Source of the DNA: Candidatus Babeliales bacterium
GTDB taxonomy: Bacteria > Babelota > Babeliae > Babelales > Vermiphilaceae
Direction: 5' to 3'
Length of the DNA: 64,000 bases
Assembly (NCBI GenBank): GCA_963743635.1
Contig: CAVUQO010000002.1
Coordinates: 480,001-544,000, forward strand
Every line of letters begins with the position of its first letter. Within the stretch, counting starts at the first letter, position 1. The notes below the pieces were generated by a model. The model was not told the DNA's origin. It did not search any database and worked only from the letters and a program-made list of their open reading frames with translations. This document shows, one piece after another, positions 12 to 63,239 of this stretch. Both the position numbers and the translations under genes were made by a program.

Positions 12-1538
12 TCATTGTATTGTCACCAGGACAGGAGTGCTTTCGCCAAGAATGCTGACGCTGGTTATCGAGAAATTTCTGCCATTATCACCATTTCCAA
101 GACGCATTGTTGAGGTGAGCGGTGAAGTTGCGAGTACATTGCTCACGAGTGTCGTGCCGTTATAGATGTTGTATGAAACAACGTTCGTGCTGCTGCTTGC
201 GGTCCAGGTGATGGTGAGAATGCGTTCTGTTTGATAAAGGAACACGTTGTTTGTGCGTGTACCAACAACGTTCGTAGGTGTGGATGGTGCTGGAGGAGTG
301 GGCAAAGGCGTCGAATAAAATGATGCATACGCATTTGAATCATTAGAGTCGAGCCAGGTAGACACAAATCCACGAGTATTGGCGCTCAATGCAACGGCGC
401 CTGTTATTGTGCTCGATTGGTTAGCCAAAATACAAGACATAGGCGTCCAATCGATGCCATTGTCCGTTGAGAGCAGCCATATAGGATTCCCATTAACATT
501 CCAAGTGGACATAAAGCCCGCTTGATTAGCAGCAACCCATGGAGCAAAACATGTACCACTACCAGGAATAGGATTAGTAAATGGTGGTGTTGAGGTAAAT
601 AAAGAAGCGGTTGCCCAATTGGCACTATTAGTACCGATTGAAAAAAGTGTTGCTCCTCCATTTATATTAGCGAGTGCGGCAGCTACAAAATATCCATTCA
701 ATTCGGCTACAGTAGGAACAGTTTCAAACTCACCTATGTTAACCATGGGATAAATGGTCGGTGAAGTTGGTGAAAAAGGATTAATTGATTCAAAATATGC
801 CGAATTTGTTTGATCGAGCCGTACGATCCAGGTAAGCATACAAGTATTGCCAACGACTACAGCGCTTACATATTGTTTTGGGGTTCCATTGACATTAAAT
901 ACTGATCCATCAAAAGTAACTTGAGTTGGAGAACTCCATGCTGCAGTTCCGGTCGAAAAACTCACATATAAATTCTGATCATTTCCTATCATTGCAGCAA
1001 CAAAGCCTGATGATCCTCCGCTGACGTACACACTCGAGTTAGCCAAGAGTGGTGCTAATGCAGATGTGTTAGGATTTATTTGCATTGCTGCGCTCCAATT
1101 AGTGCCATTATCGGTTGTAAAGCTTGACCAGGCATTGCCATAACCATCTACCCACGTGGCTAAGAAGCCAGAGGCATTTCCAGCTAAAAAAACATCGACA
1201 TTAGGTCCAACATCTCCCAGAGCGGGGGTTATTAAACCGGTTTGCCAGGTAGAGCCATCGCTTGAAAAACTATAATGAGCGGTATTGTAAGAATCTACCC
1301 ACGCCACCATGAAACCGGCAGCGGTTCCCGCAGAAACTACGTCGCTGATGACGATGCCAGAATCGCTTAAATTGATCGGTGTGCTCCATGGCGTCGTTGA
1401 AGGGCATGACATTGCATCTAATCTTGATGCTATGAGGAGTAGAACAATAAACAAAAAACTTCTTTTGAGTAACGGAGATGTTCCGTGTTGTCCTGAGGGC
1501 TTTTGGTTGAACAAACGTTCACCGTGCATCATCATCAT
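12..1538 (-). CDS. Exported protein with Asp-box (BNR/sialidase-like) repeats, Pro linker and C-terminal Fn3-like domain
   Basis: Hydrophobic signal ending LDA-M; repeats SSDGSTW, TTDNGTNW, STDNGIDW; PTPPAPSTP linker; C-terminal LTITWTAS..VVSYNIY domain shared with 16250..17908. Confidence 0.7.
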   Translation of the reverse strand: MMMMHGERLFNQKPSGQHGTSPLLKRSFLFIVLLLIASRLDAMSCPSTTPWSTPINLSDSGIVISDVVSAGTAAGFMVAWVDSYNTAHYSFSSDGSTWQTGLITPALGDVGPNVDVFLAGNASGFLATWVDGYGNAWSSFTTDNGTNWSAAMQINPNTSALAPLLANSSVYVSGGSSGFVAAMIGNDQNLYVSFSTGTAAWSSPTQVTFDGSVFNVNGTPKQYVSAVVVGNTCMLTWIVRLDQTNSAYFESINPFSPTSPTIYPMVNIGEFETVPTVAELNGYFVAAALANINGGATLFSIGTNSANWATASLFTSTPPFTNPIPGSGTCFAPWVAANQAGFMSTWNVNGNPIWLLSTDNGIDWTPMSCILANQSSTITGAVALSANTRGFVSTWLDSNDSNAYASFYSTPLPTPPAPSTPTNVVGTRTNNVFLYQTERILTITWTASSSTNVVSYNIYNGTTLVSNVLATSPLTSTMRLGNGDNGRNFSITSVSILGESTPVLVTIQ

Positions 1539-1663
1539 ATATATCCTTTTTTATTGGAGTGAGGTATGTGAATAAAAACATCATATGAGTTGGTATATCA
1601 AAGATATGCGGATGAGATCAAGTAAATCAGAATTAATGCGAGTCGAGGAGCTCATTTAAATGC

Positions 1664-1691
1664 AAAAATCCACGGAATCCCGTGGATTTTT
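1664..1691. terminator. Intrinsic terminator hairpin downstream of chaB
   Basis: aaaaatccacgg-aatc-ccgtggattttt inverted repeat. Confidence 0.7.
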
Positions 1692-1721
1692 ACTTAGATT
1701 GAGCTCGCGTTCGATGCATTA

Positions 1722-1919
1722 TTATTTTTGAACCCACTGACCATCTTCATCTTTTTTATATCGTTGTTTTACGGCAGACCACGCTACCTTAAAGGCTTGC
1801 TCTTCATTCCCGTATTCTTCATGAGCATTATTGAAAGCGGTACGAAAAATATCTTGGGCGTGTTCCGGTAAGATGTCGGAAATGTTTTTTGGAAGATCTG
1901 CATTGCTATAATAAGGCAT
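1722..1919 (-). CDS. chaB: ChaB family protein (putative cation transport regulator)
   Basis: MPY..N.DLP..LPEHAQDIF..AFN.A...AFKVAWSAVK..Y.K...GQW matches the ChaB consensus; GGAG RBS. Confidence 0.92.
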   Translation of the reverse strand: MPYYSNADLPKNISDILPEHAQDIFRTAFNNAHEEYGNEEQAFKVAWSAVKQRYKKDEDGQWVQK

Positions 1920-2175
1920 GAGTACTCCTTTGAGAGTTTGGTAATTAATTATTTTTTTGGTCGTTCAAAACGTAATCAATCTCTGTGTAGGCACGCTATC
2001 AGATCGCATCATGGTTATGCAATAGATCCTTGAACGAAATGGTCGGATCCTTGCCGGTTCGTGTAAAACCTCGTAGGAAAGGCGGTAACGTTGTGGAGAG
2101 CGACGTACCTATAGTAAAATAGGGAATGGATATGCTATTATGTTTCTATATTTCATCTTTCTAGAAAGGATAAAC

Positions 2176-61472: not shown

Positions 61473-61491
61473 AAACTGAGTGCTGAGGATG

Positions 61492-62055
61492 TTATTCGGT
61501 TGGAGTAATTTTTTTAACTTCTTCTTGTCTTACCAAGACCCACTTCAAACCTTGTTCACCGATTTGTTGTCTTGCAGGAATATGGTCCATTTGTGTATCT
61601 GGAATGAGTTGGCGCTGCATGTCGTTGTATCTGATTTCTTCGCCTGCTGCAATTAGACAACCTAAAATGGATAAACCAGCGGGTAAAGACGTGTCTACTT
61701 TATGGACTAAACCGTAGACGTGAGTAGCGACGCCTAAAGTTCCAAGGACAACCTTGGCGAAGGACGCATTTCCTTTTCTCGCGTCAAGTAATGCGACTGC
61801 TTGAGGACCGAATGCTTTGTAAGTGCGGCGTAGCGTTACGTTATTATTGTTGTTGTTATCATTGTTATTATTTGTTGATTCTACATGGTCATAACTAATT
61901 TTGTAGCGGGCTTGTCCCAAAAGTGAACGTGTGTCTACAGGGTAGTCTTTGCTGAGAGTTATGATTTCTGCAAGTCCTTTGCTTCCACTGGGGCTTGCAT
62001 GAAGGTTGCCCATAGTTGAGATCAGTAATGCTGCTGCAATAATGCGGTTATTCAT
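61492..62055 (-). CDS. Hypothetical exported protein with poly-Asn tract and hydrophobic hairpin
   Basis: AAAGG RBS, signal NLHA, NNNNDNNNNNN, two hydrophobic segments. Confidence 0.68.
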   Translation of the reverse strand: MNNRIIAAALLISTMGNLHASPSGSKGLAEIITLSKDYPVDTRSLLGQARYKISYDHVESTNNNNDNNNNNNVTLRRTYKAFGPQAVALLDARKGNASFAKVVLGTLGVATHVYGLVHKVDTSLPAGLSILGCLIAAGEEIRYNDMQRQLIPDTQMDHIPARQQIGEQGLKWVLVRQEEVKKITPTE

Positions 62056-62190
62056 AATCGCCTTTCATTGTGGTTTTTAAGGAGATTTTTATCGCATATA
62101 AGGTTACTGCAAATCATGTGTATTGCAATAGAAATGTGATTGCTATTGCCGTAATTCTGTATAACGTGATATCGCGCTTGATATTACAAT

Positions 62191-62235
62191 AAAAAAGGCG
62201 CTCTCTTTAACCGAGGTAAAAGAGAGCGCCTTTTT
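62191..62235. terminator. Intrinsic terminator
   Basis: aaaaaaggcgctctcttt..aaagagagcgccttttt. Confidence 0.85.
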
Positions 62236-62261
62236 ATGAGAGATTGTGTTACGAAATTAGG

Positions 62262-63239
62262 TTATTGGTTTTGTCTACAATATGGACATGTTTTAGTGAT
62301 ATTGGGATCATAGAGATTATTGAGATCGATACACTCTTTATGGAATTTATGTCTGCATCTTAATGATTTAATGGGGCGAGCACTATCCATCGTGGAATAG
62401 CATATGCTGCACTTGTTATCGGCGTTCTGAATTTCTTCAGGCATATCTGCTGCTGGCATAGATTCTTTTATTTCGCTTACCAAAAACCATGCAACATTTC
62501 GATTGTTCTGCTCAGCAGTGAATGCATGTAACGCTGAATGATCTTCTGTGTTATCAACATGGCCTTCTAGTAATCGTTCAGTATTGCGTGACTTCTTATG
62601 ATTAAGATATGCCAAACCTGCACCAATAAGAATAGCGGCACCGGGTTTTAAGATAGAATCCTTGGTTCCATTCCACAGTATCGGCTTCACAATATCAAAA
62701 GATCCTGGATATTTTGTATTTAAGGCATAACATTCGCCGACGACTGTCAGAACACCTATTGTGTTTGCAAGAAGAGCAATAGATTTGTAGAATAGACCGG
62801 TGGTAAGGATGCTCTCGAGTGCATCATGAATATCACGCTCATTGCGTAATGTTGCGATCGTGTTTTTCGCCGATTTCTTATCATGAGCTTCATAGGTAAT
62901 AGTGCCTTTGACCTCATAGACACGATCATAGTAGGTATGATCAAATCTATTAATTGGTGTGCCAAGTGTACTAGTATCTATTGCAATTGAATCATTGAGC
63001 TTAAGCTTGGCTTTCCAGTCATTTTTCAATTGTGTGGCCCCTTGAGGTTCCAGAGATTTAAGAATTCCGGCCACTTCAGGCATAGTTGGTGCTTGCACCA
63101 AAAGAAATGGTCTTTCTAATAAGCTTGCCTTCAGCAGTTTCAGCGATTTTGGTAATGGATCCATTGCCTGCATAGTCCCCTGGGAAATTAATCCCATGGT
63201 GAATGCGAGTAGTATTGATTTTAAAGTCGTCTTTTTCAT
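62262..63239 (-). CDS. Exported/membrane protein with C-terminal RING-H2 finger
   Basis: Signal MQA-M; two hydrophobic segments; CSIC...CRHKFHKEC...CPYCR. Confidence 0.82.
   Translation of the reverse strand: MKKTTLKSILLAFTMGLISQGTMQAMDPLPKSLKLLKASLLERPFLLVQAPTMPEVAGILKSLEPQGATQLKNDWKAKLKLNDSIAIDTSTLGTPINRFDHTYYDRVYEVKGTITYEAHDKKSAKNTIATLRNERDIHDALESILTTGLFYKSIALLANTIGVLTVVGECYALNTKYPGSFDIVKPILWNGTKDSILKPGAAILIGAGLAYLNHKKSRNTERLLEGHVDNTEDHSALHAFTAEQNNRNVAWFLVSEIKESMPAADMPEEIQNADNKCSICYSTMDSARPIKSLRCRHKFHKECIDLNNLYDPNITKTCPYCRQNQ

Follow-up and report, generated by a model that had tools for sequence, protein, structure and literature searches.

Exported proteins of a Candidatus Babeliales bacterium (GTDB lineage Bacteria; Babelota; Babeliae; Babelales; Vermiphilaceae) carry a methionine directly after the predicted signal peptidase I (SPase I) cleavage site in a large share of their leaders. 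The pattern was studied from a stretch of 64,000 nucleotides, here called the window, which spans positions 480,001 to 544,000 of contig CAVUQO010000002.1 (C2:480001-544000) in GenBank assembly GCA_963743635.1 (G000), a genome of 1,454,283 bases in three contigs with about 42% G+C and an 85% completeness. An original prediction, made from the letters of the window, had named ten unrelated open reading frames (ORFs) in which a signal peptide ends at a Met, and all ten junctions are present in the sequence where it had placed them. The explanation favoured here, at a probability of roughly 0.55, is a lineage-specific rule of Babeliales leaders for the first two residues of the mature protein, namely position +1 (P1') and the residue behind it (P2'), which acts on the protein and not on translation and is confined to the variable secretome. 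Judged from sequence, many exported proteins of this lineage probably begin with Met followed by a polar residue.

ORFs were selected greedily, with upstream starts taken, and the resulting 1,520, each 70 amino acids or longer, cover 86% of the genome. Leaders were recognised from the charge of the n-region and a Kyte-Doolittle hydrophobic core (h-region), and cleavage sites by the -3/-1 rule, blind to the residue at +1; because both come from a purpose-written heuristic, absolute fractions are approximate. The conservative counts are those of a strict detector, which found an acceptable site in 227 of 368 leader-like ORFs. At these sites no other +1 residue is as frequent as Met (51/227, 22%, against a background of 2.2%; binomial p 9e-36). 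When any valid -3/-1 site followed by a given residue is counted with this detector, Met reaches 72/368, or 9.6 times background, and the other 19 residues 0.3-1.7 times. Many leaders end in A-M-D/E, with the Met swallowed by the h-region. A second detector scores Met as non-hydrophobic, which may inflate its count of Met junctions somewhat. It places a Met junction in 124 of 423 signal-peptide-like ORFs, 14.4 times background, with the next most enriched residue at 3.3 times; Met occupies 79 of 317 blind best sites (p 2e-59) and, overall, P1' of 25-29% of G000 leaders. Paralogues are not the cause of this excess, since Met keeps a share of 24.6% when weighted by family (337 families) and 75/306 among singletons. 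The enrichment implied by the original prediction is far above chance and falls exactly at the predicted SPase I site.

The residue behind the junction Met is Gln, Glu, Asp or Asn in 85 of 124 cases, and in 61 of 88 when one member per family is kept (~70%). Codon bias at P2' was considered and set aside, as an apparent excess of CAG and GAG was much reduced with families counted once (Gln, 10 CAA and 10 CAG; Glu, 11 GAA and 3 GAG, with Glu near background). The c-regions of leaders with and without Met are similar, with HA, QA or YG before the cut. The first 30 mature residues of Met-type proteins are more polar, rich in Gln, Asn and Glu, and more acidic; their mean hydropathy is -0.80 versus -0.48 for the others (p 6e-4), and additional membrane segments occur in 10/115 of them versus 35/199.

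Spread in Babeliales and controls

Homologues of a dipeptidyl-peptidase III (DPP III) encoded in the window have source names that include Candidatus Babeliaceae, Babeliales, Dependentiae and candidate division TM6, and the genomes of G000 relatives measure 0.8-1.9 Mb; G000 is accordingly placed in the phylum Dependentiae. Dependentiae are widespread parasites of protists and are mostly uncultured. The same pipeline was applied to 188-400-kb samples of ten genomes from six families of Babeliales, and Met junctions were found in each of them. Their share of leader-like ORFs was 12/40 in G013 (30%), 11/50 in G010 (22%), 13/63 in G034 (21%), 11/63 in G009 (17%), 5/41 in G072 (12%), 8/76 in G052 (11%), 11/120 in G019 (9%), 7/82 in G066 (9%), 4/59 in G057 (7%) and 2/53 in G067 (4%), with enrichment ratios between 1.9 and 14.9. 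The rule thus occurs widely in Babeliales, at variable strength, which bears out the claim that it extends over the lineage. A 200-kb sample of Escherichia coli K-12 gave no Met junction in 17 leader-like ORFs; so few leaders make E. coli a weak control, and G067 serves as the better negative one. To our knowledge, Met is not favoured at +1 of SPase I sites elsewhere.

Genes for SPase I were found in 61 of the 61 phylum genomes searched. G000 has two in tandem (Peptidase_S26; C3:523052-525004), encoding proteins of 332 and 312 amino acids, one of which gives a split Pfam match owing to an insertion. Both copies keep SGSME, KR and GDNR..S.DSRF, which, judged by eye, we take to be the catalytic motifs. 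Relatives possess one type, the other, or both. The paralogue type was rejected as a driver of the rule: Met junctions occur in a genome with the contiguous type only (G034, 21%) and in genomes with the split-match type only (G052, 11%; G057, 7%), and since either single type goes with the rule, its strength is independent of paralogue type.

Possible start codons, working or fossil

A Met behind a leader could be a working second start, from which an internal AUG would yield a leaderless cytosolic isoform beside the exported protein. The original prediction had offered this alternative, which the evidence on Shine-Dalgarno (SD) motifs, alternative start codons and RNA folding renders very improbable. 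The Met is indeed in frame and directly behind the leader, some public gene calls for DPP III homologues begin at the equivalent residue, and in one family of paralogues (MERNK) a GGGGG run lies 3 nt before the junction ATG, like the family's own SD. Against these points, an SD motif precedes none of 51 junction ATGs; the leaders' own starts have one in 45% of cases (Met-type) and 58% (non-Met), and 6,948 internal Met codons taken at random in 5%. Mean folding energy is -12.6 kcal/mol at junction ATGs, close to the -11.4 of junctions without Met and about twice the -6.0 of true starts, and the junction RNA is richer in GC and poor in A (A fraction 0.21 versus 0.40), so that neither a ribosome-binding signal nor weakly folded, A-rich RNA was found at the internal AUGs. 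ATG was counted at 134 of 760 pooled junctions, against an expectation of 14.9, GTG at 4 (9.1 expected) and TTG at 3 (13.5 expected), while GTG or TTG make up about 10% of real starts in G000. The P2' position is poor in Lys, unlike position 2 of real starts, where Lys accounts for 30% and Gln, Glu, Asp and Asn together for 21.5%. A cytosolic copy of BamA, or of hundreds of orphan secreted proteins, would moreover make little sense.

The converse possibility, in which translation truly begins only at the Met and the leader 5' of it is a chance in-frame extension, could draw on the fact that the ORF set takes upstream starts and that gene finders at times choose the internal ATG. It may nevertheless be dismissed almost entirely. 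The leaders have the canonical build, with MKK, 10-20 hydrophobic residues and a small residue at both -3 and -1; their DNA is conserved among paralogues, and an SD motif precedes their starts (45% of 51 genome-wide and, by eye, 9/10 in the window) but none of the internal ATGs. The pipeline, in addition, gives next to no such junctions in the E. coli and G067 samples. The Met rule also helps to correct calls of start codons, since the junction Met is sometimes chosen as the start by gene finders.

A third explanation, not named in the original prediction, stays alive as a tentative one. A module of promoter, 5' untranslated region (5'UTR) and leader would have been added at the ATG of an ORF that already existed, through joining or upstream extension, and the old initiator Met would be tolerated at P1' and slowly lost. 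Lys (AAR) at P2', which would block export by the leader, would be purged by single-base changes to Gln, Glu and Asn. Homologous DNA of 5'UTR and leader is shared within 15 gene groups of G000, and in 6 of the 15 at least one pair has mature parts that lack detectable homology, the similarity stopping at the junction as a fossil start would have it. Identity is 83-96% over the promoter-like region, SD and leader and falls to background right after the junction; in one example, 167/174 positions are identical upstream versus 131/220 (near background) downstream. The junction Met lies within the conserved part of these common modules, and in several pairs its ATG is the last conserved codon. One cassette member has GTG in place of its paralogues' ATG (C2:421568), a point in favour of a fossil start, and another has the ATG shifted out of frame. 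Two processes could account for the pattern: leader modules may have recombined onto different coding sequences, or the 5' part may have been homogenised as the mature parts diverged. These mature parts are charged and helical, and a point against the fossil start is that such "unrelated", low-complexity sequences may have diverged beyond detection.

One such promoter-like/SD/leader cassette, TATTAATCTTCATAAA..AGGAGAAAAA.AAT ATG AAG A.. CTA AAA..., is present in eight genes at five loci of G000 (C2:420246-421568, C2:550900-555011, C3:139850, C3:468839 and C3:783879); their charged helical mature parts have no detectable homology, and DNA identity ends at the cleavage junction. A separate family of about 20 or more paralogues of ~600 amino acids, often in tandem arrays, starts with MERNKIIAVAVLAIGIIAWR[M/V]GA-M[E/Q]Q, the predicted cut falling before the M (C2:1852-3777, 109192-115737, 213713 and 381419; C3:1311-8191, 33232, 664153-667956 and 751807). 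Conservation extends from its 5'UTR through the leader to the third codon of the mature part, where a variable stretch follows, and a GGGGG run stands before the real start and before the junction ATG.

Further support for a fossil start comes from DPP III. The exported protein of the window (PF03571) has its leader MNKGLIIMSLLAVNSARDAHS and Met at 5754-5819 on the + strand (AHS-MDA; Met codon 5817-5819), with the SD-like motif GTAGGAGAG 5' of the leader. An E-I-A motif allowed 119 of 120 homologues to be anchored, and 88 of the 119 have a Met within the first 14 residues of the mature domain (chance, 27%), whatever their leader junction: 13 directly after a valid site, 59 elsewhere, and 16 at which the gene call itself starts. 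This conserved column and the 16 starts suggest that the family has kept an ancestral initiator. The distribution among orthologs points the same way. With conservation defined as a reciprocal-best, leader-bearing ortholog in another sampled genus, Met-type proteins number 8/178 of exported proteins with such an ortholog versus 200/892 of those without (p 8e-10), and 4/56 versus 120/367 in G000 alone (p 3e-5). A looser conservation proxy by tblastn gave no difference (30/124 versus 59/199, p 0.31), because the loose test counts paralogue families. Lability of the Met between genera, and the many Met-type proteins with cytosolic or eukaryote-like domains (Cdc48-like AAA, STAND, GNAT, C2H2, RING and PLD), would likewise suit a leader added to an older ORF.

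Other observations run counter to a fossil start. The Met excess sits exactly at +1 of a valid site, where imprecise fusions or 5' extensions would have spread it over +1 to +10. From about 10% of non-ATG starts, roughly 16 extra GTG and TTG codons would be expected at the junctions, where the two total 7. The P2' composition is unlike that of real starts, and no SD remnant or A-rich tract precedes the Met. Of 36 Met-type proteins that match a paralogue outside the leader set, none aligns its Met to the paralogue's start. BamA, whose leader is ancient, carries the Met in G000 and G009. Among 30 BamA loci the Met is clear in these two, which both belong to family f1, and possible in G044; a single event may explain it, and as a test of gain the result lacks significance.

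The bearers of the methionine and its possible role

Protein classes were compared among 125 leader-like proteins from the window and C3:220001-620000, using author-defined classes in which the envelope class includes multi-pass membrane proteins. The junction Met was found in 3/27 proteins of envelope and transport families (BamA, TamB and one M48 peptidase), in 11/30 with other Pfam domains of cytosolic or eukaryote-like type (C2H2 zinc fingers, RING+ankyrin, GNATs, PLD, Cdc48-like AAA and STAND ATPase) and in 23/68 without a Pfam match. Fisher's test separates the envelope class from other Pfam domains (p 0.03) and from all the rest (p 0.02). Of the suggested tie to effector-like, eukaryote-like domains, a bias toward non-housekeeping proteins is thus retained, and a strict association is contradicted by BamA and TamB. 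Three leader-bearing proteins packed with C2H2 zinc fingers (987, 619 and 279 amino acids; zf-C2H2 E to 8e-56) are encoded at C3:222471-228689 of G000, all with a junction Met.

The P1'/P2' rule is favoured for the exact +1 position, the lack of GTG and TTG, the P2' residues unlike those of starts, the lack of leaderless paralogues that start at the Met and of SD remnants, and the presence of the Met within cassettes. It is compatible with a fossil origin, as a fossil Met could be kept because it makes a good mature end. What survives of the earlier interpretation is a lineage-wide pattern at the SPase I site with a non-housekeeping bias; its second in-frame start does not. Several points weigh against the rule. 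The cleavage sites and N termini are heuristic predictions; 4-30% of leaders are covered, and the Met is nearly absent from G067. BamA and TamB homologues have it, and several ankyrin, Sel1 and GNAT proteins are without it. In cross-genus reciprocal-best pair records, counted in both directions, Met is present on one side only in 16/257 and on both sides in 2/257, and such poor conservation between genera would be more in keeping with a neutral relic than with a tag under conservation. The DPP III column is conserved even off +1, and 16/119 gene calls start there. Two candidate partner enzymes were looked for in G000: no exported M24 peptidase (Met aminopeptidase) was found, the M24 genes being without leaders, and a search for glutaminyl cyclase by the family Glu_cyclase_2 (PF05096), as distinct from the animal-type (M28-like) cyclase, gave no match in the genome, which is 85% complete. 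Separately, a methionine aminopeptidase gene beside adk (C2:376334-376908) matches Peptidase_M24 in two frames, of 177 and 125 amino acids, which suggests a frameshift or an assembly error.

The leaders of Babeliales match classical Sec/SPase I leaders in their basic n-region, their hydrophobic core and the small size of the residues at -3 and -1, and differ by the Met at +1. The closest known case is the Q-rule of Bacteroidetes, in which Gln stands at P1' of SPase I substrates and is cyclised to pyroglutamate by glutaminyl cyclase, which sets the mature N terminus and stabilises exported proteins (PMC5837995, PMC10653852). Both are phylum-restricted preferences for a single P1' residue in ordinary Sec leaders, recognised from genome statistics. 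They differ in the residue, which is Gln in the one and Met with a polar or acidic P2' in the other; in coverage, 48-77% of leaders versus 4-30%; in compartments, since the Q-rule holds in all and the Met rule is depleted in conserved envelope proteins; and in the glutaminyl cyclase partner, which has no known counterpart as a modifying enzyme for the Met rule. G000 does not follow the Q-rule itself, which would put Gln at P1' of the majority of SPase I substrates in every compartment; Gln stands at +1 in 6 of 155 non-Met leader families. The Met rule would be a second example, after the Q-rule, of a residue exposed by signal peptidase that is tuned phylum by phylum. No published Met rule was found in a literature search that extended to sources other than subscription journals and supplements, and the word "methionine" is absent from the paper on Chromulinavorax destructans (PMC6561590) and from that on the Q-rule (PMC5837995).

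For a meaning of the Met in a later sorting step there are eukaryotic precedents. In the bipartite presequences of complex plastids, a Phe at +1 exposed by signal-peptide cleavage (the ASAFAP motif) decides the second translocation step (PMC4329603). The ASAFAP case is eukaryotic, uses an aromatic residue and continues into a transit peptide. In the PEXEL pathway of Plasmodium, cleavage by plasmepsin V is reported to expose a mature N terminus needed for export. This N terminus is x-E/Q/D and is acetylated. The likeness lies in an intracellular parasite that marks host-directed proteins by a proteolytically made N terminus; the protease, the RxLxE/Q/D motif and the eukaryotic secretory pathway are different. 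An extended signal of the ASAFAP or PEXEL kind was not found behind the Met, beyond the modest polar shift of the first 30 residues.

We know of no translocon described for Dependentiae and of no established route by which they deliver proteins to the host. In C. destructans, export signals have been reported on up to 44% of genes (PMC6561590). The leaders appear to be genuine Sec-type leaders that SPase I would cut directly before the Met, so that the exported protein would start with Met-Gln, Met-Glu, Met-Asp or Met-Asn, and it is this Met-polar end that may be kept. Such ends are not known to be substrates of methionine aminopeptidase and constitute a NatB-type, non-destabilising end in the eukaryotic cytosol, where N-terminally exposed Asp, Glu, Asn and Gln are N-degron residues. 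Lacking the Met, the same proteins would expose these very residues. We infer that the most likely role of the Met is either to give a stabilising or host-like end to proteins that leave the bacterium or to serve as a tag read after cleavage. A more specific proposal, that Met-Gln/Glu/Asp/Asn is an address or survival tag of the host-directed Dependentiae secretome, as a eukaryote-like NatB-type end or as a signal for a second-step exporter, is doubtful. If correct, it would provide a bacterial counterpart of PEXEL or ASAFAP and make the effectors of a whole uncultured phylum predictable from sequence. A rule that tells the variable secretome apart from the conserved proteome of the envelope would also offer a handle for effector prediction. 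If the fossil start were true instead, the pattern and the 5'UTR-leader cassettes would document the large-scale building of new secreted proteins by a parasite.

The ten junctions and other genes of the window

All ten ORFs of the window, including that of DPP III, have the n-, h- and c-regions of a Sec/SPase I signal peptide, with a basic n-region, a hydrophobic core and small residues at -1 and -3 followed by Met. In nine of the ten an SD-like purine motif, judged by eye, lies 5' of the leader start. Four of the other nine junctions are on the + strand. The PLD-like protein (PLDc_2, E 7e-14) has its leader MKKLIIIAASLLSFSAIYS and Met at 28968-29027 (IYS-MDK; Met codon 29025-29027). ORF 52803-53105, of 100 amino acids, has leader MTRRFLLLLSVTCMGYA and Met at 52803-52856 (GYA-MNN; Met 52854-52856), and frame 53009-53512 has leader MRLFLLVALSSSCLSYG and Met at 53120-53173 (SYG-MND; Met 53171-53173), followed by an Asn run. 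In ORF 58982-59449, leader MKNVMLSMMLFSAFALNA and Met span 59006-59062 (LNA-MDG; Met 59060-59062).

The remaining five lie on the - strand. ORF 12-1538 has its leader and Met at 1410-1514 (LLLIASRLDA-MSCPSTT; Met codon 1410-1412), and the ATGs that lie as far as 1538 are candidates for its true start. Leader MKTSTSLKGLIIASCLLVPAMPARA and Met occupy 36319-36396 in ORF 35821-36396 (ARA-MAA; Met 36319-36321), and leader MKNYLITALFMALSAPILHG and Met 44276-44338 in ORF 43565-44350 (LHG-MND; Met 44276-44278); none of these three proteins belongs to a Pfam family. In ORF 41507-42553, leader MKNLAFFAFLFTFCSQSMLA and Met span 42482-42544 (MLA-MSE; Met 42482-42484). The exported RING-finger protein at 62262-63239 has leader MKKTTLKSILLAFTMGLISQGTMQA at 63165-63239 and its Met codon at 63162-63164 (MQA-MDP); its RING covers residues 275-322 (zf-RING_2, E 9e-9). 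The domain labels given earlier to the DPP III, PLD and RING proteins are upheld by Pfam, and the label "DUB" of ORF 41507-42553 is not, as it has no Pfam match at E<=0.001. Lipoboxes for signal peptidase II are not found at the Met junctions, where +1 is Met, and true ones occur apart from them, for example LSGC-G in ORF 18081-18785. Among the sequencing runs listed for positions 28001-38000 of the window none is of RNA; nine DNA metagenome runs from three studies match all or part of this segment.

Other exported proteins of the window have different junctions. An 804-amino-acid protein at 3222-5636 (+) has the junction LHA-APS, without a Met; its C-terminal half is rich in Cys and resembles a RING, its tail is a coiled coil, and Pfam gives no match at E<=0.001. 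Two paralogous proteins with MutS domains III/V are encoded at 13780-15498 and 19034-20893 (+), the second with the leader end LLMSGAAFA-DEAQ. Tandem orphan exported paralogues without a Pfam family are found at 8086-8721 and 8786-9733 (+) and, as another pair, at 25277-26845 and 26855-28594 (-); the latter have GAVT[VA]HMPI[RH]A-ELLIMKQT in common, with a Met within the c-region and not at +1. G+C rises to as much as 47% in positions 52000-57800, and the products of ORFs 55535-55765 and 55806-57776 contain long Gly-rich repeats (GGxGG).

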